From: Flavobacteriales bacterium
Lineage (GTDB): Bacteria > Bacteroidota > Bacteroidia > Flavobacteriales_F > PHOS-HE28
Assembly: GCA_030584065.1 (NCBI GenBank)
Contig: CP129489.1
Span: 1,777,497 to 1,841,496, forward strand
Reading direction: 5' to 3'
Length of the DNA: 64,000 nt
Part shown: positions 25,373 through 53,162 of the stretch, in pieces
How the letters are laid out: the number at the start of each line of letters is the position of its first letter
How positions within the stretch are numbered: position 1 is the first letter of the stretch
Notes under the pieces: model-generated
Told to the model about the DNA's origin: nothing
The model's input: the letters and a program-made list of their open reading frames with translations, nothing else
The model's database searches: none
Made by a program: the position numbers and the translations under genes

Positions 25373-25735
25373 TGGCCAAGCGACACGACGTCTTCACCAA
25401 GGCCAAGCGCTCGGAGGTGATGTCGAAGATCCGGGGCAAGGGCAACAAAGCCACAGAGGTCGCCCTAGCCAAGCTATTTCGGGCCAGCGGCATCACCGGC
25501 TGGCGCAGACACTATCCCATTACAGGGAAACCAGACTTTGCCTTCCCCAAGCTGAAGTTCGCCGTCTTCGTGGATGGCTGCTTCTGGCATGGCTGCCCCA
25601 AGCATGGCACCCGGCCCAAGGGTGTAAGCTTCCCCGAAGTTCGGCCATTCATTGCTGGAGGTGAAGTGATCCTTGGCCCCGCGGGGCCAAGGATCGCTTC
25701 GGCCGGCCAGGGGCTACATTCAACCACACGTAGCC

Positions 25736-26008
25736 ATGAGAAAGAGCAAGTTCACCGAGCATCAGGTCATCGCCATCCTCAAGCGTCACGAGGCTGGCTC
25801 GAAGGTGGCCGACCTGTGCCGCGAGCACGGGATCAGCAACGCCACGTTCTACCAATGGAAGGCCAAGTATGGCGGCATGGAGCCCAACCAGGTCAAGCAG
25901 CTGCGTGACCTGCAGGAGGAGCTCAGCCGCCTGAAGCGCATGTACACCGAGCTGAGCATGGTGCATGATGCCTTGAAGCAGGTGGTGGAAAAGAAGTGGG
26001 GCGCCTGA
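25736..26008 (+). CDS. IS3-family transposase OrfA (HTH)
   Basis: [48 protein letters not shown]... Confidence 0.8.
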
Positions 26009-26033
26009 CGAGAAGCGCGAGATCGTTCAGGCG

Positions 26034-26807
26034 ATGATACAGGAGCACAGCATCTCCGAGCGCCAAGCCTGCGGCAGCGTGGGCTTGGCGCGCAGCACCG
26101 CGCAGTACTGCAAGACCCCAGCGGATGACACGCCCATTATCCAGGTCTTGGAACAGCTCACCCAGAAGCACCCGGCCATCGGGGTGTGGCAAAGCCATCA
26201 TCGGATGCGCTTGATGGGTCACCTGTGGAACTTCAAGCGGGTGTATCGGGTCTACACCGGTCTGGGCCTCAACATTCGTCGCAGGGCCAAGAAACGGCTG
26301 CCTGCACGGGTGAAGCAGGCGCTGTTCCGTCCTGCTGGTCCGGACCAGGTCTACAGCATCGACTTCATGCATGACAGCCTCTGGGACGGCCGGACCTACC
26401 GCTTGCTAAATGTGATCGACGACTACAACAGGGAGGTGCTCGCGATCGAGGTGGACACCTCACTGCCCGCACTGCGCGTGATACGCGTGCTGGAACGCAT
26501 CAAAGCAGTGCGTCCGCTGCCCAAGATGATCCGCGTGGACAACGGCCCGGAGTTCATCAGCGCCAAGCTCGACCACTGGTGCCGCGAACACGGCATTACC
26601 TTGACCTACATCCAGCCAGGCAAGCCCACCCAGAACGCCTACATCGAACGCCTCAACGGCAGCATCCGTCGTGAACTGCTCAGCGCCTACGTGTTCCGTA
26701 CCTTGGACGAGGTGCGCGAGAAGGCCGATGAGTGGATGACCGATTACAACCATCACCGCCCACACAAGGCGCTTGGCTACCGGCCGCCAGCGCCCATCCG
26801 ATCCTAA
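26034..26807 (+). CDS. IS3-family transposase OrfB (DDE integrase core)
   Basis: Has the DNGPEF motif and the rve fold. It lies in the +1 frame relative to orfA, not the usual -1 (see findings). Confidence 0.8.
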
Positions 26808-27040
26808 ACCTATGCCCCAGGAGCCTCTAGTTATGATCGGCCCGAAAACAGGGGAAGCTTACAAGGGCAACAGCGCGTTTTGGTCCGCGAAGCTGGACGC
26901 CAACAAGGCCCGGGACCGCAAGGTGAATCGTGAGCTTCTAGCCATGGGATGGCGCGTGCTAAGGATTTGGGAATGTAAGCTCCCCCAAGATCAGGTGCGT
27001 GGGATAGTAGAAACCCACAACCCACCTGAACTTTGGAGCA

Positions 27041-27307
27041 ATGAAGAAGAGTAAATGGACGGAAGCGCAGATCGTAGGGATGCTGCGCGAGCATGAGCAG
27101 GGCCGCAAAGTGGCGGACATCTGCCGGGAGCACAGAGTAAGCCAGCCGACGTTCTACCAGTGGAAGGCCAAGTATGGTGGCATGGGCGCAAGCGAGCTCA
27201 AGGAGCTACGGGCATTGCGCGAGGAGAATACCAAGCTGAAGCTCAAGCTGGCCGACACGATCCTGGACCGTGACATCCTCAAGGAGATCCTGGGAAAAAA
27301 GCCCTAG
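27041..27307 (+). CDS. IS3-family transposase OrfA
   Basis: [48 protein letters not shown]...; ends ...ILGKKP*. Confidence 0.8.
   Translation: MKKSKWTEAQIVGMLREHEQGRKVADICREHRVSQPTFYQWKAKYGGMGASELKELRALREENTKLKLKLADTILDRDILKEILGKKP
27295..27301 (+). promoter_or_regulatory. programmed -1 ribosomal frameshift heptamer A AAA AAG of IS copy 2
   Basis: 'gga aaa aag ccc tag' in the orfA frame. The -1 frame continues KKALGLAEKREMAHWLV... into orfB. Confidence 0.7.
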
Positions 27308-27327
27308 GGCTCGCCGAGAAGCGTGAG

Positions 27328-28227
27328 ATGGCACACTGGCTTGTAACGCAGTGCAAGCGCAGTGTTCGGCGGGTCTGCAAGCTGCTATGCTTGAGCCAGA
27401 GCGTGTATCGCTACGAGCCCAAGCCGAAGGACGATATCGACGTGATCGAACACATGAACCACTGGGTGACCAAGAAACCGACCTGGGGCTTTTGGAAGGT
27501 GTACACTCGTGTACGCAAGGACGGCCGTGTGGTGAACCACAAGCGCCTACACCGGCTGTACACCACAGCAGGGCTCAACCTGCGTCGACCTACGAAGAAG
27601 CGCGTTCCGGACCGGGTGAAAGAGCCACTGTGTTTGCCGATCGGCCCGAACATCACTTGGAGCATGGACTTCATGGCCGACCGGCTGCTGAACGGCAACA
27701 AGCTGCGCACGTTCAACGTCATTGACGACTTCGGCCGCGAGGCACTGAACATCACGATCGACACCTCTATCCGCGCCCAGTACGTGACGCGTGAACTGGA
27801 CAAGTTGATCGAGTGGCGTGGCAAGCCAGAGCGGCTGCGAGTGGACAATGGCCCTGAGTTCATCGCCCAGGAGATGGAATTGTGGGCGGAACGCAACGGC
27901 ATCGCACTTACGTTCATCGAGAAGGGGCGTCCCATGCAGAACGGCCTGATCGAGCGATTCAATCGCACCTACCGGGAAGAAGTGCTGGACGCCTACCTGT
28001 TCGAGAACCTCGAACAGCTTCGCCAGCTGACCATCGAGTTCATCTGGAGCTACAACAACGAGCGGCCCCATGATGCACTCCTGGACCTGACCCCGCGCGA
28101 GTTCCTGTTGAAATGTGGACAACTCCCTGCCCACTACGCAGGCTCACGCGCGGACTTCCCCACATTCCAACAGGATGATCACCACAGATCAACAGAAGTG
28201 GTGATCTTTAGGAATTCGCGCGCCTGA
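27328..28227 (+). CDS. IS3-family transposase OrfB (DDE)
   Basis: DNGPEFIAQ...; -1 frame relative to orfA. The OrfAB fusion is reachable by slippage at the A_AAA_AAG site. Confidence 0.8.
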   Translation: MAHWLVTQCKRSVRRVCKLLCLSQSVYRYEPKPKDDIDVIEHMNHWVTKKPTWGFWKVYTRVRKDGRVVNHKRLHRLYTTAGLNLRRPTKKRVPDRVKEPLCLPIGPNITWSMDFMADRLLNGNKLRTFNVIDDFGREALNITIDTSIRAQYVTRELDKLIEWRGKPERLRVDNGPEFIAQEMELWAERNGIALTFIEKGRPMQNGLIERFNRTYREEVLDAYLFENLEQLRQLTIEFIWSYNNERPHDALLDLTPREFLLKCGQLPAHYAGSRADFPTFQQDDHHRSTEVVIFRNSRA

Positions 28228-28311: not shown

Positions 28312-29175
28312 CTACCGCGAAGTAGGGTTTCGGAACAATACCATTTCCTTGAACTGAGCTGAGTCTAGTTGGTTATCGACTTCTCTCTCATTGTTCGCTG
28401 CAGTTGGTCCTCTCCAAACAGGAGATAGTCGCCAATTAATGACCCCGTTCCTTATACTATTCAGCACTGTTTCGGTCCATTCTGGGGAATAGGCGCAACC
28501 TGGCGGTGTGCTAGGTAAACTCATTGCATGAACAATCACAAATTCTAATCCTTTGTTAAACCTCTTTATGCATTGTTTCCACCACTTAGTTTTCACTGAA
28601 TGCTGAAGATGTGTATCATTCTCCATATAACCGAAAAGCTCCTCCTCGAAAATCTGGCAGAGTTTATCCATATTCTTAATTTCAGCATCCCTTAAGTAAC
28701 CCTCAGATTGAAATGGTGCATCAGCAGGAAGAGAATTGATGAACGCCTCTACGAACACATTCCAAGATTGGTCCGTAAGTCCGTGGTTTCTCCAATTTTC
28801 ACGATAGTGTCCAAGCTCGTCAAGCTGTGAGGTTACTCTTCCAATTATACGGAGCTTGGCTTCCGACCGACTAATACCCTCCCATGCAAGAGACTCACTA
28901 GCCTCGGCGCCAAAGCGGCGCTGCGCGTTTGTGAGTTCATCTTCGCTAATTGCAGAGTACTTTAATGCCTTATGTGTATACTGGTACTTATTCTGTGTGA
29001 ATTCATCATGTGCATTTGCAACAACTTCTAGAAAATCCTCATGATTTGGCCCTTTAAACACAGTAACTGGAACTGGTTGATTGGGCCGAGCGATGAGGTA
29101 AGCGCACAATCGATGATTGCCATCAAATACTTTTAACTGACCATCCGAGTATCGGCATAGAATAGGCGAAAGCAA
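28312..29175 (-). CDS. ParB/Srx-superfamily (DGQHR/DUF262-like) domain protein; no ATG start, in frame with the upstream HNH ORF
   Basis: ...SDGQLKVFDGNHRLCAYLIARPNQ... (D-G-x-H-R motif). Track start is a TTG. The 45 codons upstream, up to the HNH stop, contain no stop. Lower GC than the flanks. Confidence 0.55.
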   Translation of the reverse strand: MLSPILCRYSDGQLKVFDGNHRLCAYLIARPNQPVPVTVFKGPNHEDFLEVVANAHDEFTQNKYQYTHKALKYSAISEDELTNAQRRFGAEASESLAWEGISRSEAKLRIIGRVTSQLDELGHYRENWRNHGLTDQSWNVFVEAFINSLPADAPFQSEGYLRDAEIKNMDKLCQIFEEELFGYMENDTHLQHSVKTKWWKQCIKRFNKGLEFVIVHAMSLPSTPPGCAYSPEWTETVLNSIRNGVINWRLSPVWRGPTAANNEREVDNQLDSAQFKEMVLFRNPTSR

Positions 29176-29310
29176 TGGATTAGATCTCAGGTGCCATGCT
29201 AGGTTGATGACCTTGCGAACATCCGCTGCGCGTGTCTGTACTTGCCTGTCTACCCATAGCAGGGCTGGAGGAACAACAGTTGAAAATGAAGTCCATCTTT
29301 TATTGGTGAA

Positions 29311-29772
29311 CTATTGATGCATGACAGGATACTCCCTGTCTTGAAAGGTGGCTATATGTCGTTGATCATCCCATACAATATGCGCCTTGTACTCTGCAGC
29401 ATCAGGTGATCTCCCCGGAAGAAGGTCGTCTGAGAATCTTGTATTGGAGGCTTTGCGATGTATTTTAATATACTCAATCCATTCCTGTCCAGTGTACTTA
29501 TTGCCCTTCCCCTTGTGACAGTTCCTTCTTGCGGCAGTATCATATCCATCTTCAAAACAGGAAACTCCATCCCTTGCTGCATGAACAGGGTATTGATTGG
29601 CAACAAGGTCTGCTTGACGATCTCCGACTAATCCTTGGGCTAGCCAATGATCGAACTGGATATCTCCGAAATGTGCATATCCGTCGAAGTTTGAATGTGG
29701 TAAGCCCAAGCCGTCGCACACGTAGCATCGTGGCTTCTGCTCAAGTCTGCGCTCCTTCTCTGCTCGCGTCAT
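29311..29772 (-). CDS. HNH endonuclease domain protein
   Basis: CYVCDG...QFDHWLAQG...N...CHKGKGNK (CxxC...DH...N...CHxxK). Ends with a TAG at 29311-29313 in the same frame as the downstream ParB-like ORF. Confidence 0.7.
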   Translation of the reverse strand: MTRAEKERRLEQKPRCYVCDGLGLPHSNFDGYAHFGDIQFDHWLAQGLVGDRQADLVANQYPVHAARDGVSCFEDGYDTAARRNCHKGKGNKYTGQEWIEYIKIHRKASNTRFSDDLLPGRSPDAAEYKAHIVWDDQRHIATFQDREYPVMHQ

Positions 29773-29791: not shown

Positions 29792-29890
29792 TTACATATT
29801 CCTCCGGTACTGCCCCCCCACCTCGAACATCGCTTGCGTCAACCGCCCTAGCGAGCAGTACTTCGTCGCCTCCATCAGCACCGCGAATCC
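29792..29890 (-). repeat. icmF 3'-terminus copy D (last ~33 codons plus stop), direct repeat
   Basis: ttacatattcctccggtactgccccc... encodes ...[31 protein letters not shown]; compare the real icmF end at 43246. Confidence 0.8.
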
Positions 29891-30281: not shown

Positions 30282-30395
30282 CGGGTCCGGTCACATGTTC
30301 CTCCGGTTCTGACCACCTACCTCGAACAACCTGTCCCGCCTTAGCGGATCGCTTGCGTCAACTGCCCCAGCGAGCAGTCCGTCGTCGCCTTCATC
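30282..30395 (-). repeat. icmF 3'-terminus copy E (degenerate)
   Basis: tcacatgttcctccggttctgaccacctacctcgaaca...cgcttgcgtcaactgccccagcgagcagtccgtcgtcgccttcatcagcac. Confidence 0.7.
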
Positions 30396-30420
30396 AGCAC
30401 GGAGCAGTTGACGCCGATGA

Positions 30421-31215: not shown

Positions 31216-31737
31216 CCTCATCACATATTACGTCGGTACTGTCCACCGACCTCAAACATAGCGGCGGTGAGCTGCCCCAGCGAACAATACTTCGTCGCCT
31301 CCATCAGCACCGCGAACATATTCTGGTTCCTGATCGCCGCCTGCTGAAGATCCTTGATCGCCTTGGCCGCCTCTGCCGAGTATGCCTGCTTCAAGTTCTC
31401 GACGGTGGCGATCTGCGCCTCCTTCTCCTCCTCGGTGGCGCGGATCACCTCCTTGGGCAGGATGGTGGGCGAGCCCTTGCTGCTGAGGAAGGTGTTCACG
31501 CCGATGATGGGGTATTCGCCGGTGTGCTTCAACGTTTCGTAGTAGAGGCTTTCCTCCTGGATGCGGCTGCGCTGGTACATGGTCTCCATGGCGCCCAGCA
31601 CGCCGCCGCGCTCGGTGATGCGATCGAACTCGGCCAAGACGGCCTCCTCCACCAGGTCGGTGAGCTCTTCGATGATGAAGCTGCCTTGCAGCGGGTTCTC
31701 GTTCTTGGCCAGGCCGAGCTCCTTGTTGATGATGAGC

Positions 31738-31930
31738 TCTTGGGTACCACACCGCACCCCGTTCCGGCGCCATCCGCCTTCGGCGGCCCCTTCGGGCGGG
31801 CGCGCTCGTCCGGCCATGCTGCGTTGCTCGTCGGTCGGCTACCTCGTGGTAGCCTCCCTTCCTCGCGCCTTGCCTGGCCGAACGATCATCGCCCGTGGCA
31901 TCCGTTCGGGGCACGGCGTGGTACCCTGTG
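31738..31930. repeat. MITE-like ~190-bp insert 1 (terminal inverted repeats GGGTACCAC / GTGGTACCC; core GCTACCTCGTGGTAGCCTC...CTGGCCGAACGATC...TGGCATC)
   Basis: Present in copy C between 'gatgatgagct' and 'ggccatggcgcgg'; absent from the intact icmF at 43730-43800. Confidence 0.65.
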
Positions 31931-32185
31931 GCCATGGCGCGGCGCACGCTTTCCTCGGTGCCTGAGCCTGCCCCGGCCTCCGAGCCGGGGTGGTGATGGC
32001 CTCGTCGTAGGCGTTGGTGTGCAGGCTGTTGCAGTTGTCGTAGATGGCGTAGAGCGCCTGCAACGTGGTGCGGATGTCGTTGAAGTCGATCTCCTGCGCG
32101 TGGAGGCTGCGGCCGCTGGTCTGGATGTGGTACTTCAGCATCTGGCTGCGCTCGTCGGCGCCGTAGCGGTGCTTGAGCGCCTTGG

Positions 32186-32382
32186 CCCGTTGGGTGCCAC
32201 GAAGTCCACCGAGCAGCGCCACTGCGGTGTAGCCGCTGCCCTTCGGGTGAGCGCCGCTCATTCGCCCATACTTCGTTGCTTCCTCAGTCAGCTACCTATG
32301 GGTAGCCTCTCTTCGTCGCGCCTCGTCTGGCCGAACGATCGTCACTCATGGCATCTGCCCGGCGAACTCCGAGGCACCCCGG
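32186..32382. repeat. MITE-like ~195-bp insert 2, same family as insert 1
   Basis: ...GCTACCTATGGGTAGCCTCTCTTCGTCGCGCCTCGTCTGGCCGAACGATCGTCACTCATGGCATCTGCCCGG...; absent from the intact icmF at 43985-44000. Confidence 0.65.
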
Positions 32383-32942
32383 CGGCGCGCCACGCGGCCC
32401 ATCACGGCGTACTCGGGGTCCATGCCGTTGCTGAAGAAGAAGCTCAGGTTGGGCGCGAAGGCGTTGATGTCCATGCCCCGGCTCAGGTAGTACTCCACGT
32501 AGGTGAAGCCGTTGGCCAAGGTGAAGGCAAGCTGGCTGATGGGGTTGGCGCCGGCCTCCGCGATGTGGTAGCCGCTGATGCTGACGCTGTAGAAGTTGCG
32601 GACCTTCTTGTCGATGAAGTATTGCTGCACATCGCCCATCAAGCGCAACGCGAACCTGCCTGTCCGGTAGGCAGGCTCGGTGCTGAAGATCGTTGTTCTG
32701 CGCCTGGTGGTTATGCCCGCCCTGAGCTTGTCGAAGGGTTGGGCGTGCCCCCTCGCAAAAGCCTCGGGGTCGCGTGCTTCGCTTTAGCCGGACTTGTCAG
32801 GGCCAGCATCCACGGCGCTGCGGGGTCCTCCTTCGTCGGCCTCCTCGCTGCTCGTGGTTGCAAGGCCCTTCCAGCGCCGGGCTGCCGCTTCGCCCGCTCA
32901 CGCAGATCCATTGTACCACGTTGAACGTGTACTTTTGTCCCA

Positions 32943-41842: not shown

Positions 41843-42312
41843 TCACATATTCCGCCGATACTGCCCCCCCACCTCAAACATTGCAGCAGTTAACTGACCC
41901 AGGCTGCAATACTTGGTCGCTTCCATCAAGACCGCAAACATGTTCTCGTTCTTGATCGCAGCCTCTTGAAGCTTCCGAGTGCGGCTTTCCCTTCAGCCTC
42001 ATAAGCCTTCTGCACGTTCTCCACGGTGCGGATCTGCGCTTCCTTCTCCTCTTCCGTAGCACGGATCACTTCCTTCGGGAGAACGGTCGGCGATCCTTTG
42101 CTCGACAAGAACGTGTTCACCCCAATGATCGGATACTCACCCGTGTGCTTCAGGGTCTCGTAGTACAAGCTCTCTTCCTGGATCCTTGAGCGCTGGTACA
42201 TGGTCTCCATGGCGCCCAGCACGCCGCCGCGCTCGGTGATGCGGTCGAACTCGCTGAGCACGGCCTCTTCCACCAGGTCGGTGAGCTCCTCGATGATGAA
42301 GCTGCCCTCGCG
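41843..42312 (-). pseudogene. icmF 3' copy B (~470 bp, frameshifted)
   Basis: Track ORFs 41926..42273 and 41874..42062 give ...[93 protein letters not shown]..., then the frame is lost. Confidence 0.8.
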
Positions 42313-42328: not shown

Positions 42329-43249
42329 TCACACTACGATGTACCGCTCTTGCAAATACGTTAGCCACTTATCGAAATCGGGTGATGGCGAATGCTCCTG
42401 GCAGATATCAAGAAATCGTTCATAAGTAAGCGTCATGAACCTGCCGTCCGGTGCGGCTAGGAAGGACTTGTAGCCTGTGCAAGCGTCGTCCATGTGCTTA
42501 TTGCCTTTCGGGAACAAGGTGAGCGAGGTAGCGTGGGCAAATCGCTCAGGATGCTTGAGCAGAATGCTCTCCGCGAGTAGGTGGTTCCGCCAGATCTGCC
42601 GGTAATCGTCTGTGATCACCTGTGTTTCGCATCCCGGCTTGAATATCCCACAGGCAGCCATGACCTTGAAGTAAATAGAGGCTCGGTCATTCACAGTTCG
42701 CTCTTCCGTGGAGCCATGCTTCAATTTGTAGGCGCGTTCGGTGTACTTCACCTCAATCCCGATAAGCCCCCGCCGACCTTCCTTATCAGTGCTTTCGGTA
42801 TATGCATCGAAAGATGTACCATCATTCAAATACTCTGAACGTGGCGACGGCGCAAACTCGATGCGAATCGGATCGACAGTGCTCAAGGGTTCTCCAAGCA
42901 AGTCTGAGAAAACCTGCAGGCGATACTTATCGTCCAAGTTCAGGGGCCAGAGCATGTTCAACGGAATGTGCTCGCTCCGAAGCATGTTCCCATAGACCTT
43001 CTCGCTCGTTATCGGATAACGCTTCCTAGCGGCTTCCAAGATGCCTAACTCGGGATAGAAGTTGCATCCTGCATCCGCGTCGCATGGCGTTAGGAAGTTG
43101 CCGTAGTTCTTCGTCTTACTCCATCCGTGTGGCAATTTCAACCGCTCTGCACGGAATCTTGATTGATGAAGGCGCGCCTTCTTCAGGAATTCGGACTTAT
43201 CGAGTCCGTCATCCCCGCTGTATTGTGGTCCGATACCGTAACTCATCAC
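42329..43249 (-). CDS. hypothetical PD-(D/E)XK-like nuclease-fold protein (cargo of the cassette nearest icmF)
   Basis: ...[29 protein letters not shown]... (D...E-x-K). AT-richer than the flanks. Its start overlaps the icmF stop. Confidence 0.4.
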
Positions 43250-46200
43250 ATATTCCTTCTGTACTGTCCGCCGACTTCGAACATGGCCGCAGTGAGTTGA
43301 CCGAGACTACAGTACTTGGTGGCTTCCATCAACACTTCGAACATGTTCTCATTCTTGATCGCAGCTTGCTGGAGGTCTTTGATGGCTTTGGCCGCCTCAT
43401 CCGCATAAGCAGTTCGGAGATTCTCGACGGTCGCTATCTGGGCTTCTTTCTCCTCTTCCGTAGCTCTGATGACCTCTTTCGGCAAGATCGTCGGTGATCC
43501 TTTGCTCGACAGGAAGGTATTCACCCCGATGATGGGATACTCACCCGTGTGCTTCAAGGTCTCGTAGTACAAGCTTTCCTCCTGGATGCGGCTGCGCTGG
43601 TACATCGTTTCCATCGCACCCAAGACCCCACCACGTTCCGTGATCCGATCGAACTCCGTCAACACCGCTTCCTCGACGAGATCCGTCAATTCTTCGATGA
43701 TGAAGCTGCCCTGCAACGGGTTCTCGTTCTTGGCCAGGCCGAGCTCGCGGTTGATGATGAGCTGGATGGCCATGGCGCGGCGCACGCTTTCCTCGGTGGG
43801 CGTGGTGATGGCCTCGTCGTAGGCGTTGGTGTGCAGGCTGTTGCAGTTGTCGTAGATGGCGTACAGCGCCTGCAACGTGGTGCGGATGTCGTTGAAGTCG
43901 ATCTCCTGCGCGTGCAGGCTGCGGCCGCTGGTCTGGATGTGGTACTTGAGCATCTGGCTGCGCTCGTCGGCGCCGTAGCGGTGCTTGAGCGCCTTGGCCC
44001 AGAGGCGACGCGCCACGCGGCCCATCACGGCGTACTCGGGGTCCATCCCGTTGCTGAAGAAGAAGCTCAGGTTGGGCGCGAAGGCGTTGATGTCCATGCC
44101 CCGGCTGAGGTAGTACTCCACGTAGGTGAAGCCGTTGGCCAGCGTGAACGCGAGCTGCGAAATGGGGTTGGCGCCGGCCTCCGCGATGTGGTAGCCGCTG
44201 ATGCTGACGCTGTAGAAGTTGCGGACCTTTTGGTCGATGAAGTACTGCTGAACGTCGCCCATCAAACGCAGCGCGAACTCGGTGCTGAAGATGCAGGTGT
44301 TCTGCGCCTGGTCCTCTTTGAGGATGTCGGCCTGCACGGTGCCGCGGACGCTCTGCAGGGTCTCCGCCTTGATCTTCTCGTAGACGTCTTTCGGGAGGAC
44401 TTGGTCGCCGGTGATGCCGAGCAACAACAATCCTAGGCCATCATTGCCCGCAGGTATTTCTCCGTGGTAGCGCGGTCGAGGTGAATGGTGAATGGGAGTT
44501 GGTGAATGGGAAGAGCCCTTCCCTCCATTCGCCATTGACCATTCGCCATTCGCCTTCTCCAACTTCTCCCAGCGCTCCTTGATCTTCTTCTCCACCTCGG
44601 CCTCCAACCCGTGCTCACGGATGTACTTCTCACAGTTCTGGTCGATCGCGGCGTTCATGAAGAAGCCGAGGAGCATGGGCGCGGGACCGTTGATGGTCAT
44701 GCTCACGCTGGTGTTGGGCGCGGTGAGGTCGAAGCCGCTGTAGAGCTTCTTGGCATCGTCCAGGCAGCAGATGCTCACACCGCTGTTGCCCACCTTGCCG
44801 TAGATGTCGGGCCTGCGACCGGGATCGTGGCCGTAGAGCGTCACGCTGTCGAACGCGGTGCTGAGGCGCTTGGCGGGCATGCCCTGGCTCACGTAGTGGA
44901 AGCGCTTGTTGGTGCGCTCCGGACCGCCCTCGCCGGCGAACATGCGCGCGGGGTCCTCGCCCTGGCGCTTGAAGGGATAGATGCCCGCGGTGTAGGGGTA
45001 CGACCCCGGGGTGTTCTCCTGCATGGCCCAGCGCACCTTGTCGCCCCAGCTGCGGAACTTGGGCAGCGCCACCTTCGGGATCTTCAGGTGACTGAGGCTC
45101 TCGGTGTGGTTGGGCACCTTGATCTCCTTGCCGCGGACGGAGTAGGTGTAGAATTCACCGGAGTATTTCTCCTCCTCCTTCTTCCAGTTCTGGAGCATGG
45201 ACCAGAGGTGGGGGTCGAGGTCTTTGCGGATGTCCTCGAACTTCTTCACCAGCTCAGTAACGAGTGGTGAGTGGCGAGTGGCGAGTGTGCCGTCGGAGGC
45301 AGCACTCGCCACTCGCGACTCGTCACTCACCACTCCGTGAAGGACGTCAGGCCCGCCGAGCGTGAGGATCGATGAGTACAGACCATAGAGTTGGTCCGCA
45401 ATACGTGCCTGTTTCGTCACCCGATCATCATACCTCCGGTTGTTCTCGCTGATCTCGCTGAGGTAGCGGCTCTTGGCGGGGGGAATGATCCACACCTTCT
45501 CGCTCATCTCGTCCATCCCGTGGAAGGTGCTCTTGAAGTCCACGCCGGTCTTCTCGGCGATCTTGGTCATCAAGCGGGCGTAGAGCGTGTTGGTGCCGGG
45601 ATCGTTGAACTGGCTGGCGATGGTGCCCACCACGGGGAGCGTGTCATCGTCGGCGTCCCACAGCTGGTGGTTGCGCTTATACTGCTTCTTCACGTCGCGC
45701 AGGGCATCGAGGGCGCCGCGCTTGTCGAACTTGTTGATGGCCACCACGTCGGCGAAGTCGAGCATGTCGATCTTCTCCAGCTGCGTGGCCGCGCCGAACT
45801 CCGGCGTCATGATGTAGAGGCTCACATCGCTGTGGTCCAGGATCTCGGTATCGCTCTGGCCGATGCCGCTCGTCTCCAGGATGATCAGGTCGAAGCCCGC
45901 GGCCTTCAGCACGCTCACGGCCTCCTTCACGTGCTTGCTGAGGGCCAGGTTGCTCTGGCGCGTGGCGAGGCTGCGCATGTATACACGCTCGCCGCGGATG
46001 CTGTTCATGCGGATGCGGTCGCCCAGCAGCGCGCCGCCGGTCTTGCGCTTGCTCGGGTCCACGCTGATCACGCCGATGGTCTTGCCTTGGTCCGGGCTTG
46101 ACCCGGACTGGTCCAGGATGAAGCGGCGGATGAGCTCGTCCACCATGGACGATTTACCCGCGCCGCCCGTACCCGTGATGCCCAGCACGGGAGCCTTGTT

Positions 46201-46803
46201 CGCCTCGGCCTGCTTGTGGATCTCGTCGGCGATCTTGGCGAACACCTCGGGATGGTTCTCGGCCGTGCTGATCAACTTGGCGATGGCCGGCCAGTTCTGC
46301 GGCGTCAGCTTCTTCGCCTCGCCGTTCACCTTATCGCTCAGGTCGAAGTCGGCCTTCTCCAGCATGTCGTTGATCATGCCCTGCAGGCCCATCGCGCGAC
46401 CGTCATCCGGATGGTACAGGCGCGTGATGCCGTACGCGTGCAGCTCCTCGATCTCGCTGGGCAGGATCGTCCCGCCGCCACCGCCGAAGATCTTGATGTG
46501 CCCCGCGCCCTTCTCCTTCAGCAGGTCGAACATGTACTTGAAGTACTCCACGTGCCCGCCCTGGTAGCTGGTCATGGCAATGGCGTGGGCATCCTCCTGG
46601 ATCGCGGTGTTCACCACGTCCTCCACGCTGCGGTCGTGCCCCAGGTGGATCACCTCGGCGCCGGTGCTCTGGATGATCCGCCGCATGATGTTGATGGCGG
46701 CATCGTGGCCGTCGAACAACGAGGCGGCGGTGACCACGCGGATCTTGTTCTTGGGCTGGTAGGGAGGAGCTTGCACGAACGTTGACATGTACGGAGGCCG
46801 CAA
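43246..46803 (-). CDS. icmF: fused isobutyryl-CoA mutase (B12-binding domain, MeaB-like G-protein, mutase barrel), with two in-frame palindromic insertions
   Basis: [11 protein letters not shown]12 DxHxxG; [13 protein letters not shown]-loop; methylmalonyl-CoA-mutase-like C-terminal half ending ...[11 protein letters not shown]. 1185 aa against ~1090 typical. Confidence 0.9.
44479..44551. repeat. in-frame palindromic insertion 1 in icmF (arms of GAATGG-type short repeats around GGGAAGAGCCCTTCCC)
   Basis: ggtgaatggtgaatgggagttggtgaatgggaagagcccttccctccattcgccattgaccattcgccattcgcc; encodes the odd segment ...[26 protein letters not shown]... Confidence 0.6.
45262..45334. repeat. in-frame palindromic insertion 2 in icmF (arms of GAGTGGC-type short repeats)
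   Basis: gagtggtgagtggcgagtggcgagtgtgccgtcggaggcagcactcgccactcgcgactcgtcactcaccactc; encodes ...[24 protein letters not shown]... Confidence 0.6.
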
Positions 46804-47052
46804 GTGAGGTACGCGGCTTGCCGCGAAGGTACCGGTCCAAGTTCGATCGGTAAACGTTTGGGCGTGCCCCTTCCCCCGGATGCCACTCCGGGGCTCAGGG
46901 TCCGGCTCTTCGCTGTACTCCTCCCCCTCGCCCCCCTCGAATCCGCTCCGCTGCGCTCTGGGCCCCCGGGTGCGGGGTGCCGCTGCGATCCGTCACGCGG
47001 ATCCCCGGACTACAAAGCGCTTCGGTACATTAGCCACACTACCAATGACAAG

Positions 47053-47254
47053 AAACATGGCAATAGCGATCAGCGGCGCGGTCATCGTAGAAAACGGCAG
47101 CCGTATAAAGTACCGGCAGAAGTGCGATAAGTGCGGCCATTCCCCTAGTACGGTCATCGCTATTGGAGCACCCACGGGTGCCAACAAGCTCACGACATCA
47201 TTCAAATGCCCCAAGTGTGGAAACCAGCAGCGCTTTGAGATCGCCGGTCGTTGA
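47053..47254 (+). CDS. small zinc-ribbon protein (two CxxC pairs)
   Basis: MTRNMAIAISGAVIVENGSRIKYRQKCDKCGH...FKCPKCGNQQRFEIAGR*; AT-rich insert. Confidence 0.45.
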
Positions 47255-47287
47255 ACCGCAAGCCAGGACCTATTCCGCTTGGCTCGA

Positions 47288-47945
47288 AGTGGAGATAGGT
47301 CTTGATACCAGTTCGATAGCGCTATCATGGCGACAGCGGAAGCAACTATTCGAGGACAGGATCGAGGCCTGCCTTCAAGGGCTAGAGCGCGCCACCCCAG
47401 GAATCCGGGCCAAGCTTGAAGTGCATCCTGCCCGGCCATTCGCTTTCACGGGCGCGCTCAGCGTAGAGGATATCCGTGCGATATGGCACCTGCCTGAGCT
47501 GCGCATGCTTTCCGACCGCGATGCTCAAGAGCTACCTGTGCCCGATGATGCTGGTCGCCTGCCCTACGCCGTGGAGGTGCTCCAGCATGTCCAAGCGGAA
47601 GAGAGCACGGTCGTCGATCAAGAGCGCATGGTCGTGATCGTCCACGCGACCGATGAGGATGAGGCTAAGCGCATCGCGCTGGCTGAATGCAGCACCATGC
47701 CCGCACACTTCATGGGTGGTGACTACCGCATCCACCGCCGCTGGTGGACCGCTGAGCGCGCCATCCTCAACACCCTCTACGACGAGCGCACGCGTCACGG
47801 AGAAGCGATCGTCGTTGATCAGTGGAGCCAATCGAAGCTGAAAGACCAACTGAATTGGCGGCCAGATGCCAGCGTTGAACACGTGGCGTATGGAAGCCCG
47901 AAACAACGGCCGAGTACATGGGAATGGATGATCGCAGCGCCTTGA
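47288..47945 (+). CDS. hypothetical protein (start uncertain; GTG at 47288, or fused further upstream)
   Basis: No ATG before codon ~118 of the track ORF 47163..47945; unknown function. Confidence 0.3.
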
Positions 47946-48739
47946 TCGAAGCACTCAGATTCAGCTATGAATCTGAGTATTGCCGTAGCGGTGCACCAGA
48001 TTGGGCTTTCCAAGGTGTCGCACCAGCGATTCCATACATCGGTGAGCGCTTCCTTGAATCTCCTATAAAGGCATTGATCTATGCCAGTGCGGAGAATCTC
48101 GCCAGTGACACTGGGCATCTAGAAGGACTTCGTACGCAAGATGTGAGGCAGCAAATGGTACGCTCATATGGACTGAAGCCACGGGCGAATCAAGACCAGA
48201 ACGTGCATATCGAGCCCATCAACAATGGTGCGCTGCTCAAGGTGGCTCGCCATATTCTGTCCTACCACCCGAGCGATGAAGCGCTCTTAAAGCATTCATC
48301 GAAGTTTTTTCTTGAACAAGTAGCGGTCGCTAATCCAGGCAAGTTCAGCATCGACCCATCGAAGCACAAACAGAAGGTTAACCTGGACTACGCAAGGGAC
48401 TGGAAGAAATTCAAGGACCAGATCGCCTACGTTCAGGCAGACTTGGAGCACCTAACACCTCATTGGCTGATCCTTCCAGCAACTATCCATCGCTCACTCG
48501 TTCGAGCCGGGCTGAAGTCTGCTCTTGAACGCATTCCAACCATCGTATCCATCCAACAAGTTCAACAACGAGCTATCGTCCGGAAGCATGGGAATAGAGT
48601 TCCCAAAGACGACACCATAGAGTTGCCCGGTGGGTACGGAGACTGGAAGGCCCCTCACTATTCCAACACATACATCCGTTGGATGATTGAGAATGCTGGC
48701 AGATTCGCCATGCAAGAGAAAGGCCGAATAACTCTATAG
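47918..48739 (+). CDS. hypothetical protein
   Basis: 273-aa ORF in an AT-rich (~50% GC) insert; no motif recognised. Confidence 0.4.
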
Positions 48740-48757
48740 CGCAATGTTAACTACATC

Positions 48758-48985
48758 CTCCACGCCGCGGTCGTGCCCCAGAGCCTGCCCCGGCCTTGAG
48801 CCGGGGTGGATCACCTCGGCGCCGGTGCTCTGGATGATCCGCCGCATGATGTTGATGGCGGCATCGTGGCCATCGAACAACGAGGCGGCAGTGACGACAC
48901 GGATCTTGTGTTTCGGGACGTAGGGCGGGGCTTGGACGAAGGTGGACATGCGTGAACGCCGGAGGACTGATCGCGGCTTGCCGCG
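48758..48985 (-). repeat. copy of the icmF 5' end (promoter-proximal ~25 bp plus codons 1-~64) carrying a 25-bp hairpin insert
   Basis: Encodes [48 protein letters not shown].... Upstream 'cgcggcttgccgcgaaggtaccggt' is identical to 46826-46850. Confidence 0.8.
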
Positions 48986-49055
48986 AAGGTACCGGTGGAA
49001 CACCGTTCCTCAAATCATCAGTAGAAGGCCACGGGAGTAGGCGTAGGTTAGTCAT

Positions 49056-49946
49056 ATGCAAGTACGCAACGCCCTCCTCTCCGGTTTCCTGCCTGCCACT
49101 CTTTCTGCGCAGAACTGGTGCGCACCCGGTGCGACTTGGAATTACGCCACGCAAGCCTCTTGGGGCGAGGGATGCTATGAGCACTTGTACGTCGGCGCCA
49201 CGTTGCTAGGTGGGGTTATCGGTCAGAACATCTTCACAGCATCGAACTTCTACTACGTGGACCTTGGGGCCGTGGTGTATGAGCCCCCTCATTACTACAT
49301 CACTACGCGATGGCAGGACGATATCGCATGGTGGTGGGTGCCGGACCTCATGGACTGGGACACCTTGTACAATTTCGGCGCGGTACCAGGGGACAAATGG
49401 CTCCCTCCGAACTTCGTGGGCCTGTGCCCGCCCTACGAGTGGATCGAGGTTGTCGATACCGGATCCGTCCTCGTCTCGGGTGTCTCGCTGCACTACCTCG
49501 ACATCATGCAGGCCGGTACGGAGGACACCGTGTACAGCCGCATCACCGAACGGTTCGGCTGGGAGTGGGAGATCAACATTTGGCCACCGTGCGTGGGCCC
49601 ACCCGAGATCATCTCGGGCCTGATCTCTTATAGCGACGATGAGATCAGTTGGACGAACCCCGCGTGGACCGAAGGGTGCTTCGGTGTTGTTGGTATCGAG
49701 GAGCAAAGCAGTTCGGGGATCCGCCTCTTCCCCAACCCCGGCAACACCCAATTCACCCTAGACCTCCCAGCCGGCCCGCACACCATCACCCTCTTCGATG
49801 CCACGGGCCGCCTAGTGCTGCAGCAACGCACCACCGACACCCGGCCGGTGGTCGGCACGGAAGTGCTGCCCGCAGGGCTTTACCGCATCAGTGTGAGCGA
49901 TGAATGCGGCATGGTGACGGGCGCGATGTGGGTGAAAGCGGACTAA
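49056..49946 (+). CDS. T9SS C-terminal-domain (type A sorting signal) secreted protein
   Basis: Signal peptide; C-terminal ...LFPNPGNTQFTLDLPAGPHTITLFDATGRLV...GLYRISV...WVK. Confidence 0.75.
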   Translation: MQVRNALLSGFLPATLSAQNWCAPGATWNYATQASWGEGCYEHLYVGATLLGGVIGQNIFTASNFYYVDLGAVVYEPPHYYITTRWQDDIAWWWVPDLMDWDTLYNFGAVPGDKWLPPNFVGLCPPYEWIEVVDTGSVLVSGVSLHYLDIMQAGTEDTVYSRITERFGWEWEINIWPPCVGPPEIISGLISYSDDEISWTNPAWTEGCFGVVGIEEQSSSGIRLFPNPGNTQFTLDLPAGPHTITLFDATGRLVLQQRTTDTRPVVGTEVLPAGLYRISVSDECGMVTGAMWVKAD

Positions 49947-50013
49947 TGGCTGATGGGACTGCACAGGCAGCATTCCATCCAACCACCCCGTCTCCTGCCT
50001 ACATTCGCTCATC

Positions 50014-50898
50014 ATGCGCGCTGCACTCTTCTCCCTGGCCCTACTGCCCGTGCTTGCCGCCGCACAGAGCTGGTGCCCGCCGGGGGCCAGGTGGACCTTC
50101 CGTTACTTGGACCAAGCCTTCGGAGGCGGACAAGGCGTGACCCGTGTGGTCTACGAAGGAGACACGCTGGTCGGTGGTTTCACTGCCCAGAAGCTGCGAG
50201 AGACGGATGTGACCGCTCCGTGGGGCTCGACCAACTACGCATCATCCACGTACTCGGCCCCCATACTGACCAGATCCGCCGATGGCATCGTGTATGTCTG
50301 GGACGGGAGCAATGCCTTCGATACCTTGATGTGGTTCAGCGCCGCGCCCGCTCAGTACTGGGCAAGCCCTGGCTTGGACAACGACCCCTACAACCGGATC
50401 ACCGTCCTCGATACCTCCACCGTCGTGATCGGGGGTACGCCGTTGCGACAACTCATCGTGCAACGCGGTGACTGGGATTGGATGCCTCCTGACACGCTGC
50501 GGGAGCGCATCGGCTTCCACTTCAACTATTTGAACGGATGGTCGTGGTTTCTCACCGACCAGCCTTGGAGCGGGCTCATGTGCTACAGCGATCAGAGTAT
50601 CGACTTTGTGGTACCGGGTATTACGGACTGCGGCTTCACGCTAAGCGTGAACGAGCTTTCATCGGAGGATCACCTCGGGATGTTCCCCAACCCCGGCACC
50701 ACCCACTTCACCCTTGACCTCCCACCCGGCCCGCACACCCTCACCATCTTCGATGCTACAGGCCACATGGTCCTGCAACAGCGCACCTCCGATGCCCGGC
50801 CGGTGATTGCCACGGAAGCGCTGCCCGCCGGGCTGTACCGCATCACCGTGCGCGATGAACAGGGAGCAGTGGCGAGTGCGACGTGGGTGAAGGAATAG
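50014..50898 (+). CDS. T9SS C-terminal-domain secreted protein (paralog of the preceding gene)
   Basis: Same architecture; ...MFPNPGTTHFTLDLPPGPHTLTIFDATGHMV...GLYRITV...WVK. Confidence 0.75.
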   Translation: MRAALFSLALLPVLAAAQSWCPPGARWTFRYLDQAFGGGQGVTRVVYEGDTLVGGFTAQKLRETDVTAPWGSTNYASSTYSAPILTRSADGIVYVWDGSNAFDTLMWFSAAPAQYWASPGLDNDPYNRITVLDTSTVVIGGTPLRQLIVQRGDWDWMPPDTLRERIGFHFNYLNGWSWFLTDQPWSGLMCYSDQSIDFVVPGITDCGFTLSVNELSSEDHLGMFPNPGTTHFTLDLPPGPHTLTIFDATGHMVLQQRTSDARPVIATEALPAGLYRITVRDEQGAVASATWVKE

Positions 50899-50899
50899 G

Positions 50900-51546
50900 C
50901 TAGCCCTTCGCCAGCGCCTTGATGTCCTTCACCTCCACCACGTTCTTCGGATAGCCCTTCTCGACGGCGTGGATCATGGCCAAGCCCACCTGCTTCATGC
51001 TGCAGGTCACCCAGGGCATCACCAGACCGAAGACCGGTACTAGTGCGCGCATCCACCACTTCGGGTTCTTCATGCCGGGGCTCAACGTCATGATGCCCGG
51101 ACGGAAGTTGAACTGCTGCCGGAACCCGAGCCGCGAAAGTTCGTTCTCGGTGCGTCCCTTCACCCGCGCCCACATCAGGCGTCCTTTCTCCGTGCTGTCC
51201 GTGCCGCTGCCGGAAACGTAGATGAAGGTGGCCTGGGGTGAACCCGCGCGCACGGCCTTCGCGAAGGCCATGGTGGTATCGTAGGTGGCGCGCGTGTAGT
51301 CCGCCTCGTTCATGCCCACCGAACTGATGCCCGCGCAGAAGAAGCAGCCATCGTAGCCGATGAACCGGTCCTTCACCGATTCCAACTTGAGGAAATCGGG
51401 CACCAGCAGCTCGGTCAACTTCGCATGGCTGCGACCGCAGCTCCGGCGTCCAACCACGAGCACTTCCTCCACGACGGAGTTCCCGAGGCATTCGAGCAGC
51501 ACCCCTTCACCCACATAACCGGTGGCACCAGTAAGGATGATCTTCA
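50900..51546 (-). CDS. NAD(P)H-binding atypical SDR/NmrA-like protein
   Basis: MKIILTGATGYVGEGVL... Rossmann motif. Start could be 3 codons upstream (MGMKII). Confidence 0.7.
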
Positions 51547-51575
51547 TTCCCATGGGACGAAGGTACCTTTGAGGT

Positions 51576-53162
51576 ATGCCCAAGGATATCCGCATCCGCC
51601 TGCGCCACTTGAAGCTCGAGGATTTCCAGAACCTGCGCGAGGCCATGGTGCAGGCCTATCCGGACATGGCCGGCGCCATCTGGCGGGAGGACCACATCCG
51701 CACCCTCATCGCCCGCTTCCCCGAAGGGCAGTTCTGCGTCACGGTGAACGGCAAGGTGGTGGCTTCCGCGCTATCCATCATCGTCGACTATGACCTCTAT
51801 GGTGACAACCATACCTACCGCCAGATCACGGGGAACTACACGTTCAGCACCCACGACCCGTCGGGCGATGTGCTTTACGGCATCGATGTGTTCGTGCACC
51901 CCGAGTACCGCGGCATGCGACTGGCGCGGCGGCTGTACGAGGCCCGGAAGGTGCTGTGCGAGCGCCTCAACCTGAAGGCGATCGTCGCGGGCGGGCGTAT
52001 CCCCAACTACGCCAAGTACGCGGATGAGCTGAGTCCGCGGGCCTACATCGAGAAAGTGCGCCTCAAGGAGATCTACGACCCTACCCTCTCCTTTCAGCTC
52101 AGCAACGATTTCCACGTGCTGAAGGTGATGAAGGGCTATCTGGAGGGCGACAGCAGCTCACGTGAGTATGCCACCCTCCTCGAATGGAACAACATCTACC
52201 ATGACCAGCGGCCCAAGATCGCCGGCCGGGCCAATGAGGTGGTGCGGCTGGGACTGGTGCAATGGCAGATGAGGCCCATGACCAACCTCGGCGCCCTATG
52301 CGACCAGGTGGAGTTCTTCGTGGATGCCATCAGCAGCTACCAGGCGGATTTCTGCCTCTTCCCGGAGCTCTTCAATGCACCCCTGCTCGCCGAGTTCAAC
52401 GACCTCGACGAGGCCTCGGCCATGCGCGGACTGGCGCGGTACACCGAACCGCTGCGCGACAAGTTCATCGACTACGCCATCCGGTACAATGTGAACATCA
52501 TCACCGGCTCCATGCCCCTGCTTGATGGAGACCACCTGAAGAACGTGGGCTACCTCTGCCGGCGCGATGGAACCTGGGAGAAGTTCGAGAAGGTGCACAT
52601 CACCCCGAACGAGGTGCAGTATTGGGGCATGACGGGCGGCGATGAGGTGAGGGTCTTCGATACGGATTGCGGCAAGGTGGGCATCCTCATCTGCTACGAT
52701 GTGGAGTTCCCCGAACTCTCGCGCCTGCTGGCCCTGCAGGGCATGCAGATCCTCTTCGTGCCCTTCCTCACCGACACGCAGAACGGGTATATGCGCGTGC
52801 GACGGTGTGCGCAGGCCCGCGCCATCGAGAACGAGTGCTACGTGGCCATCGCCGGCAGCGTGGGCAACCTGCCGAAGGTGGAGAACATGGACATCCAGTT
52901 CGCCCAGAGCGCCGTGTTCACCCCCAGCGATTTCGCCTTCCCCACCAACGGCATCAAGAGCGAGGCCACCCCGAACACGGAGATGACCCTCATCGTGGAT
53001 GTGGACCGCGACCTGCTGAAGGAGCTCAATGCCCATGGCAGCGTGCGCATCATGCGCGACCGCCGCACTGATCTCTACGACCTGAAGCTGCTGAAGAACC
53101 CACCGGCGATCGCAAGACCCGGCAAGGATGACCGTTCAATTCGGTCCGGTATCAGAAAGTAG
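51576..53162 (+). CDS. bifunctional GNAT N-acetyltransferase / carbon-nitrogen hydrolase (nitrilase superfamily) protein
   Basis: N-terminal GNAT fold (...VFVHPEYRGMRLARRLYE...); C-terminal CN-hydrolase with ...KVGILICYDVEFPE... (Glu-Lys-Cys triad region). Confidence 0.8.
   Translation: MPKDIRIRLRHLKLEDFQNLREAMVQAYPDMAGAIWREDHIRTLIARFPEGQFCVTVNGKVVASALSIIVDYDLYGDNHTYRQITGNYTFSTHDPSGDVLYGIDVFVHPEYRGMRLARRLYEARKVLCERLNLKAIVAGGRIPNYAKYADELSPRAYIEKVRLKEIYDPTLSFQLSNDFHVLKVMKGYLEGDSSSREYATLLEWNNIYHDQRPKIAGRANEVVRLGLVQWQMRPMTNLGALCDQVEFFVDAISSYQADFCLFPELFNAPLLAEFNDLDEASAMRGLARYTEPLRDKFIDYAIRYNVNIITGSMPLLDGDHLKNVGYLCRRDGTWEKFEKVHITPNEVQYWGMTGGDEVRVFDTDCGKVGILICYDVEFPELSRLLALQGMQILFVPFLTDTQNGYMRVRRCAQARAIENECYVAIAGSVGNLPKVENMDIQFAQSAVFTPSDFAFPTNGIKSEATPNTEMTLIVDVDRDLLKELNAHGSVRIMRDRRTDLYDLKLLKNPPAIARPGKDDRSIRSGIRK

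Follow-up and report, generated by a model that had tools for sequence, protein, structure and literature searches.

A displaced gene start beside icmF in a high-GC Flavobacteriales genome, probably left by recombination at a recurrent hotspot

The gene icmF, encoding a fused isobutyryl-CoA mutase, lies in a 64,000-nucleotide stretch of a Flavobacteriales bacterium (GenBank assembly GCA_030584065.1, contig CP129489.1, positions 1,777,497 to 1,841,496 of the forward strand), hereafter the window. The start of the gene is present twice, once on the intact working copy and once on the far side of a block of three small genes. On balance, we interpret this 5' repeat as the scar of recombination that was anchored in conserved icmF sequence and needed no dedicated recombinase, the outer 257-bp copy being the orphaned start of a former allele. 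The locus is a variant of a known process, terminus displacement, centred here on a housekeeping gene and acting at both of its ends, and it is a recurrent hotspot. The features of the 5' side are, in window coordinates:

43246-46788, minus strand: icmF, fused isobutyryl-CoA mutase, 1180 aa, the intact working gene (Pfam B12-binding, MeaB and MM_CoA_mutase)
46603-46836, minus strand: proximal repeat copy, comprising icmF codons 1-62, a 23-nt leader and the 25-mer (self-BLAST)
46812-46836 and 48972-48996, minus strand: exact 25-mer CGCGGCTTGCCGCGAAGGTACCGGT, two occurrences in the window and no others
46852-47027, minus strand: GC-rich structured element, Flavo-1-like, 176 nt, 70.5% GC, between the icmF box and the zinc-ribbon gene
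47045-47254, plus strand: zinc-ribbon protein, 69 aa, C27xxC30...C55xxC58 (from the translation; Pfam zinc-ribbon matches are sub-threshold only)
47217-47945, plus strand: ORF2, 242 aa, GTG start, overlapping both neighbours, a clade-restricted family
47918-48739, plus strand: ORF3, 273 aa, uracil-DNA-glycosylase-superfamily fold
48740-48996, minus strand: distal repeat copy (the orphaned icmF start, or stub), comprising the 25-mer, a different 22-nt leader, codons 1-62 and 8 inserted codons
48782-48805, minus strand: 24-nt in-frame insertion in the stub, a perfect hairpin CCCCGGC-N5-GCCGGGG

An earlier, sequence-only reading of this DNA had noticed the duplicated start, a string identical in both copies and the three genes between them. 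All three are real: the repeat is slightly longer than had been described, the string is the exact 25-mer, and the zinc-ribbon gene and the two further open reading frames (ORFs) are present. Suspicion of a collapsed or chimeric repeat joining two strains would be natural, given that the source is a metagenome-assembled genome (MAG) and that repeats in a conserved gene are a classic assembler trap. However, three independent metagenome assemblies from separate samples reproduce the arrangement: one contig (L081, JGI 3300048839) covers window positions 45308-51997 at 99.96% and spans both junctions, and two more are 100% identical over the stretches they cover (L082, SRR24881069, 46681-48834; L083, ERR15459718, 47204-48834). 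An analogous structure with other cargo exists in a further locus, L093. We regard an assembly artefact as extremely improbable, and the earlier assumption that the structure is genuine stands.

The two copies share one orientation and are 86-87% identical in the self-BLAST. Their differences fall at 14 synonymous versus 4 non-synonymous codons, and by this measure they are different alleles, each of which evolved as a working gene start before the two were joined; a recent duplication in situ is thereby excluded. The distal copy has since lost that function by all appearances. It closes with a TAG that abuts the stop codon of ORF3, and its 24-nt insertion, whose hairpin folds at -18.6 kcal/mol within the 35-nt stretch folded, interrupts the conserved IHLGHDR segment of the B12-binding domain. 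Stub changes at nt 36, 39, 54, 60, 160, 174, 177, 182 and 183 are found neither in the working copy nor in nearly all of the relatives compared; these stub-specific changes are concentrated toward the truncated end, and the tail is degenerate. Judged by the insertion in a conserved motif, the changes seen in almost no other sequence and the degenerate tail, the stub is a decaying pseudogene. The hairpin was also considered as a dispersed repeat and rejected as unique: it occurs once in the window and, among the fetched loci, in none but L081-L083, which are the contigs reproducing the window.

Long direct repeats around a gene block without mobility genes are a published class, namely insertion with long target duplication, described for restriction-modification genes (Nobusato 2000; Furuta 2010, PMC2853133). 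The icmF locus shares with it small blocks devoid of mobility genes and long flanking direct repeats, which vary in length and often overlap a resident gene's end (PMC2853133). Had such an insertion occurred in situ here, the copies would have to have diverged afterwards. In that class the repeats derive from one target and, in the examples consulted, are 94-100% identical (PMC2853133), whereas the icmF copies are different alleles, with identities of 86% for the 5' pair and 77% for the 3' pair; the 5' pair shows the 14:4 ratio, and its allelic types are shared with other genomes. Moreover, the window and L093 agree at 100% in the neighbouring 3' structure, which makes 13% divergence in situ implausible. 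In-situ target duplication is very improbable in our view.

The status of the three genes became apparent when genomic contexts were fetched via homologues of ORF3 and ORF2. The order promoter-like box, GC-rich element, zinc-ribbon gene, ORF2, ORF3 recurs, with orientation unchanged, beside the icmF start in L086, L089-91, L092 and L096, and in L095 and L097 the beginning of the block has an identical layout up to the contig ends; in L098-100, ORF2 (55% identity) is followed by an ORF3 apparently split into two ORFs. The block is divergent from icmF in every context recovered (L086-88, L089-91, L092, L095, L096-97, L098-100), as far as the contigs reach. Relatives without the operon carry other genes upstream of icmF: a beta-lactamase gene in L084, a PQQ_2 gene in L085, which retains the GC-rich element, and hicAB in L093. 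These gene orders mark both the operon and the GC-rich element as the clade's normal upstream neighbours of icmF rather than exotic cargo, and the structure in the window thus joins two natural upstream arrangements. Two earlier claims change accordingly. The three genes had been taken for an inserted foreign cargo, which cannot stand as worded when the same block adjoins the icmF start in other genomes, and the icmF promoter had been thought severed from its former context; in fact the working gene keeps the clade's usual upstream context, and the outer stub is the part that is cut off, retaining its own copy of the promoter-like box beside genes for proteins sorted by the type IX secretion system (T9SS). 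A comparison of icmF upstream regions had been suggested as a check: it bears out the recurrence of stubs (in L093 and L086) but identifies the block as a normal neighbour. The three overlapping plus-strand ORFs had likewise been called AT-rich; their GC content is indeed lower than that of the window (54.9% versus 63.4%), though not AT-rich in absolute terms. The two T9SS-sorted proteins adjoining the stub (49056-49946 and 50014-50898) are tandem paralogues, 82% identical in the region of the C-terminal sorting domain (49728-49936 versus 50683-50891).

The 5' stubs recur with a consistent allelic signature. In the window the working start encodes PPYQPK and the stub PPYVPK, and in all three lineages with a 5' stub (the window, L093 and L086-88) the working start has PYQPK (3/3) and the stub PYVPK (3/3); the stub-free lineages (L084, L085/94, L089-91, L092, L095 and L096/97) have PYVPK in six out of six. 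The rest of the architecture varies. L093 carries a HicAB pair as cargo at its 5' end, together with its own stub of codons 1-61, while L086-88 have a stub of aa 1-34 and no cargo; across the three lineages the stubs end at codons 34, 57-61 and 62-64. L086 gives the clearest view of direction. There, the PYVPK stub (codons 1-34) is still attached to the ancestral box, the GC-rich element and the operon, and ahead of it sits a PYQPK start that has a box of its own and about 70 nt; because of that retained connection, the PYQPK start is clearly the newcomer in L086. The working starts of L093 and L086 are strongly recoded at synonymous sites within the otherwise invariant nt 57-145.

L093 also shares much of the window's sequence. 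Across the final third of icmF and the 10 kb that follow, the two are about 99.3% identical, and a comparison of the genes themselves (window 43246-46788, L093 919-4440) gives about 91% identity over the first 1.9 kb and near-identity from there on, in the last 1.4 kb as well as in those 10 kb. A switch of this kind within the gene points to a homologous-recombination breakpoint inside icmF. We had placed that switch exactly at the boundary of the 5' repeat, an assignment now withdrawn: the whole 5' 1.9 kb is about 9% different, and the breakpoint lies at about nt 1900-2200. A downstream PDDEXK_13 homologue was likewise considered as a correlate of 5' stubs and rejected, with only L093 having one among the loci fetched to that point.

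The 25-mer at the same end of both copies is not a chance repeat, since two matches were obtained in 0/100 shuffles. On the icmF strand it includes CCGGTACCTTCGCG, and its core reads TAccTTcG. The Bacteroidota -7 promoter consensus is TAnnTTTG, and on the strength of this resemblance we regard the 25-mer as a putative promoter -7-like box (TAnnTTcG); a sigma-70 promoter and terminator scan carries no information for a Bacteroidota genome. The core, CGCGAAGGTACCGG, is kept upstream of icmF in L085, L086, L089 and L092, genomes without any duplication included.

The same 25-mer could be read as an attachment (att) core. A non-autonomous element, akin to a cis-mobilisable element (CIME) or a decayed island, would then have been integrated site-specifically by a recombinase encoded elsewhere, with the icmF-start fragment forming part of the attachment region, as is the case for e14 and phage 21 at icd. 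The identical 25-mer stands at the same end of both repeats, sequence diverges right outside it, and the tandem displaced fragments described below look like accretion at an att site. Yet the supposed core is the conserved box found upstream of icmF even without duplication, the stubs of L086 and L093 end at other codons and are without the 25-mer, and the junctions at the 3' end of the gene are scattered over 350 codons. Nor is there an integrase to be found in the insert or in the window ORFs scanned. Pfam detected no integrase or transposase in either the 5' or the 3' insert (three cargo proteins and the PDDEXK protein), and among ten further ORFs at 19.5-29.8 kb, so that part of the window's ORFs was covered, the only mobility genes were two IS3 (rve) transposases some 19 kb away. 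The insert boundaries carry no inverted repeats and the insert no transposase domain, which sets it apart from insertion sequences, transposons and miniature inverted-repeat transposable elements. Site-specific integration is an unlikely account of the locus.

We instead favour recombination by the host's own machinery, and infer both this mechanism and its direction from the anatomy, the recurrence, the allelic difference and the lack of a recombinase gene in the insert, all of which are directly observed. DNA from a related Flavobacteriales lineage would have recombined with the resident chromosome such that two versions of the icmF upstream region were joined and a stub was left behind. The first junction would be homologous. 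It would exploit the 5' end of icmF, whose nucleotide sequence is very highly conserved: nt ~79-145 are nearly invariant across lineages, synonymous sites included, and the flanks are unrelated. The second would be illegitimate, with icmF, at about codon 62-64, fused to the final base of the ORF3 stop codon. In topology, the event may have been homology-facilitated illegitimate recombination. Alternatively, a single crossover (Campbell-type) may have inserted a 2.16-kb segment that had been circularised and that comprised the icmF start (from about codon 62), promoter box, GC-rich element and operon up to the ORF3 stop; a sister-chromosome bridge would be a further route to a gene part that is both retained and replaced. 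Host homologous recombination would suffice in any of these, and no integrase would be needed. As to direction, the PYQPK start, promoter, GC-rich element and operon may be the incoming DNA and the PYVPK stub with its T9SS genes the resident remnant. By analogy with L086, where the PYQPK start is the newcomer, we slightly prefer this direction to the opposite one, in which stub and operon came in and the PYQPK gene was resident, or the stub arrived with the DNA on its far side; the latter is only a little less probable. The preferred direction, a re-import of the three-gene block and the present gene start into a genome without that block, comes near the insertion envisaged in the sequence-only reading. 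More generally, icmF would serve as an anchor at both ends, where small cassettes (toxin-antitoxin pairs, restriction-modification systems, nucleases and metal-efflux genes among them) are exchanged along with a new gene terminus and the previous termini are displaced outward.

Several observations weigh against this interpretation. No empty-site allele of this species was found in scans with IcmF, the T9SS protein or a junction 20-mer, and for this reason the direction and the single-event nature of the exchange are proposals: the genome-contig scan with IcmF gave, among the matches listed, relatives at no more than 75% identity (while revealing 3' fragments in L029 and L073), the metagenome scan with the neighbouring T9SS protein gave no match, and the 20-mer across the junction of stub and flank gave one unrelated chance match, L101. 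The box is identical at 25/25 positions and the adjoining leaders are unalignable, a pattern in keeping with a crossover or att core located there; this would reverse the direction, and the universal linkage of the operon to icmF suits the operon as resident. The working 5' end is a mosaic, L086-like at nt 1-33 and L084-like beyond, and later gene conversion may have blurred the record; the mismatch patterns of both working copy and stub against relatives are mosaic as well and do not fix the direction. Simple homology-facilitated illegitimate recombination, furthermore, normally deletes recipient DNA rather than duplicating it, so a circular intermediate or a sister-chromosome bridge must be assumed. 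Finally, it is an unexplained coincidence that a stop codon marks the exact position of the illegitimate joint.

The other end of icmF has a comparable history. The sequence-only reading had the same gene flanked on both sides by insertions with duplicated termini, and the 3' duplication is indeed real: positions 43246-43712 and 41843-42308 are 77% identical and enclose a nuclease gene. The features of this side are:

42329-43249, minus strand: PDDEXK_13 (REase-ARP) nuclease gene, cargo of the 3' displacement (Pfam E = 1e-64), its start overlapping the icmF stop codon
41843-42310, minus strand: displaced 3' fragment 1, aa 1026-1180, with a 1-nt frameshift
31224-32700, minus strand: displaced 3' fragment 2, aa ~829-1180, beyond metal-efflux genes
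32733-32918, minus strand: GC-rich element, second window copy, about 30 nt away from where fragment 2 is truncated
30294-30403, minus strand: displaced 3' fragment 3, aa 1151-1180, on the far side of a PIN-type toxin-antitoxin pair
29795-29887, minus strand: displaced 3' fragment 4, aa 1150-1180

The four fragments span 13 kb downstream of icmF, all on the same strand, and divide from one another, in order, the PDDEXK_13 gene, a metal-efflux block (DUF3703, HMA, P-type ATPase and ACR_tran, named by synteny with L089 and L093 rather than by an ORF scan), the PIN-type toxin-antitoxin pair and a DUF2281-like gene. Displaced 3' fragments behind small cassettes are also found in L029, L073, L084 (DUF2281-PIN), L085, L093 and L095 (Fic, PRAI), with two fragments each in L085 and L095; L089 represents the empty 3' site, icmF being followed directly by DUF3703. 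The junctions lie at aa 829, 1026, 1086, 1093-1096, 1104, 1117, 1129, 1140, 1145 and 1150-1151, positions too variable for one att site at the 3' end. In L093 the gene caller lists a 115-aa 'MM_CoA_mutase' ORF, and 3' fragments may thus be annotated as short mutase genes. Beyond the fragments the window holds a restriction-modification block with Dcm-type methylase, EcoRII-C endonuclease and Vsr genes, and then two IS3-family transposase genes (22881-28227; 56-61% GC). Beside the outermost icmF fragment, at 28312-29772, are two ORFs of 47-50% GC without a Pfam match, which by eye encode a Cys/His-rich HNH-like protein of 153 aa and a 287-aa protein with a ParB-like DGNHR motif.

One genome has an intact gene with stubs to both sides of it, and both inserts are lower in GC than the gene body, which might suggest a single event in which a foreign operon, a complete icmF and the PDDEXK gene replaced resident codons ~63-1025 and left both ends behind. 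This is quite improbable. L093 shares the working and displaced 3' ends with the window (100%, and 99.7% for the PDDEXK_13 gene) but differs in its 5' cargo, stub and gene start; the two kinds of stub occur independently, with a 5' stub only in L086 and 3' stubs only in L084, L085 and L095; and the working gene is 94-99% identical to that of stub-free L084 up to nt 3095. Divergence from L084 and L089 begins at nt 3096, identity to L084 dropping to about 79% from there, one base past a 19-nt identical block, AGGGCAGCTTCATCATCGA (gene nt 3077-3095), that opens the 3' duplication. The new icmF 3' end (last ~450 nt) has 53.0% GC and the nuclease gene 51.9%, against 62.7% for the rest of icmF. The sharp tract edge at nt 3096 and the shared low GC would fit a site targeted by the nuclease, and with a nuclease gene and such an edge at hand, some form of homing can be envisaged for the 3' insert. 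The 5' insert, whose cargo differs between genomes, is unlike a free-standing homing endonuclease: its proteins show no nuclease domain in Pfam, PADLOC, PHROGs or NCBIfam, whereas the 3' insert has both PDDEXK_13 and the sharp tract start.

The products of the three-gene block offer few clues to function. ORF2 is identical to the NCBI protein QY325_07985 (100% over the 205 aa queried), from a high-GC Flavobacteriales MAG. ORF3 shows the alpha/beta fold of uracil-DNA glycosylases (UDG) and has invariant motifs of its own (YASAEN, NPGKFS and N.D); no UDG match was obtained in Pfam or NCBIfam, and no catalytic motif is established. Homology and structure prediction, which had been proposed for the block, was therefore productive for ORF3 but gave no informative match for ORF2. 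The two families are small, with 50 (ORF2) and 58 (ORF3) proteins, and neither has a match in Pfam, PADLOC, PHROGs or NCBIfam, nor does the PDDEXK protein in PADLOC, PHROGs or NCBIfam. The zinc-ribbon gene is kept in L086, L089, L092 and L096.

The GC-rich element, kept in L085, L086, L089 and L095, scores 21 bits against the Rfam family Flavo-1 (RF01705), under the gathering score of 42; its core helices are similar to those of Flavo-1, and five predicted base pairs show compensatory changes. Copies are ~140-185 nt long, have conserved ends (GCGUGACGGAUCGCAGCGG ... GGGGCACGCCCAAAC) and adjoin icmF sequences. They lie at 9779-9957 in L085, 8935-9097 and 5027-5164 in L086, 8958-9103 in L089, and 9674-9808 and 3298-3480 in L095. 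One position is upstream of the icmF promoter box; in L086 one copy is inverted and sits 3 nt past the icmF stop codon, and in L095 one directly follows the oldest displaced 3' fragment.

IcmF itself is 95% identical to protein P0001 of a Flavobacteriales MAG, and its top relatives (82-95% identity) come from high-GC Flavobacteriales MAGs throughout. Within the coding sequence, at 45262-45335, is an inverted repeat with 26-nt arms that are 92% complementary; it sits in a linker ~65% identical to most relatives, where other genomes carry a DUF559 insertion. These DUF559 (PF04480) endonuclease domains, about 150 aa long, lie in frame in variable IcmF linkers of P0051 (L095 5570-9535), P0092 and P0114, at two positions (~aa 510 and ~aa 790), giving proteins of 1308-1326 aa.

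Could the operon itself drive the process? The zinc-ribbon, ORF2 and UDG-fold genes might be a selfish homing-type cassette for the icmF start, in which the glycosylase-like protein damages naive alleles and repair copies in the cassette with a recoded start. The strict linkage of the operon to the icmF 5' end, the DNA-glycosylase fold of ORF3, the heavily recoded starts of L093 and L086 and the nucleases around icmF (the PDDEXK_13, Vsr and HNH genes and the in-frame DUF559) all fit such a scheme. However, most operon-bearing genomes are stub-free with an ordinary PYVPK start, stubs occur with unrelated cargo (HicAB) or none, ORF2 identity follows lineage as that of a vertically inherited neighbour would, and the glycosylase role lacks an established catalytic motif. 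We accord this scheme little probability. A broader version, to which we give a small chance, is that the icmF ends of high-GC Flavobacteriales are integrase-free docking sites for cassettes that carry their own replacement terminus, and that associated nucleases may drive the process; the candidates would be PDDEXK_13 at the stop codon, the in-frame DUF559 in the linkers and the nearby Vsr and HNH genes. If so, a housekeeping gene would have been colonised by a homing-like system, of which the operon and GC-rich element would be a dedicated part rather than passive neighbours.

Recombination anchored in icmF has published counterparts. C-terminal displacement has been described in rhs genes (Jackson 2009, PMC2935791), and sequential displacement in effector-immunity modules of the type VI secretion system (T6SS; Kirchberger 2017, PMC5361080). 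In such arrays a conserved stretch pairs with the incoming DNA, the far end joins illegitimately and the old ends accumulate downstream (PMC5361080; PMC2935791), an outcome attributed to homology-facilitated illegitimate recombination (PMC5361080). The icmF locus displays the same hallmarks, namely a conserved anchor beside variable DNA, arrays of orphans and distinct alleles that have been under selection. As in rhs, contact-dependent inhibition (CDI) and T6SS loci, a new end arrives at the conserved anchor with adjacent genes and the old end persists outward as an orphan, repeated events giving rise to same-orientation arrays without a recombinase. Unlike those loci, icmF is a housekeeping metabolic enzyme gene rather than a polymorphic toxin gene, the replaced terminus encodes the same protein sequence so that the payload is the neighbouring cassette, and displacement affects the 5' end, promoter included, besides the 3' end.

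Two integrase-borne systems leave similar footprints. The element e14 and phage 21 integrate into E. coli icd, where the prophage supplies a substitute for the gene's 3' end and icdC is the fragment that is displaced. There too the target stays intact through a diverged replacement terminus, and the resident terminus becomes a pseudogene on the far side of the insert. These are, however, complete prophage-type elements with a tyrosine integrase and one att core, whereas the icmF inserts measure 0-2 kb, have variable junctions and came without a detected integrase. The second is tandem accretion, in which integrative elements and CIMEs arrive one after another at a conserved gene end and build an array where copies of that end alternate with cargo blocks. 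It requires an integrase and identical att repeats; at icmF no integrase turned up among the ORFs scanned, and the exact 25-mer, with its promoter-like core, is an ambiguous candidate for such a repeat.

Terminus displacement is known from polymorphic-toxin loci and integrase-borne elements; here it occurs around a conserved metabolic gene in several Flavobacteriales lineages. The work also defines a small UDG-fold family, its partner protein and a GC-rich structured element, each in tight linkage with icmF. Annotators should label the 5' stub and all four 3' fragments as pieces of pseudogenes rather than as short 'methylmalonyl-CoA mutase' genes. If the behaviour is general, strongly conserved genes would act as landing pads, and cassettes for toxin-antitoxin pairs, restriction, nucleases and metal resistance could pass from one diverged genome to another by host recombination alone, and the stubs left beside them would be a readable record of past acquisitions.

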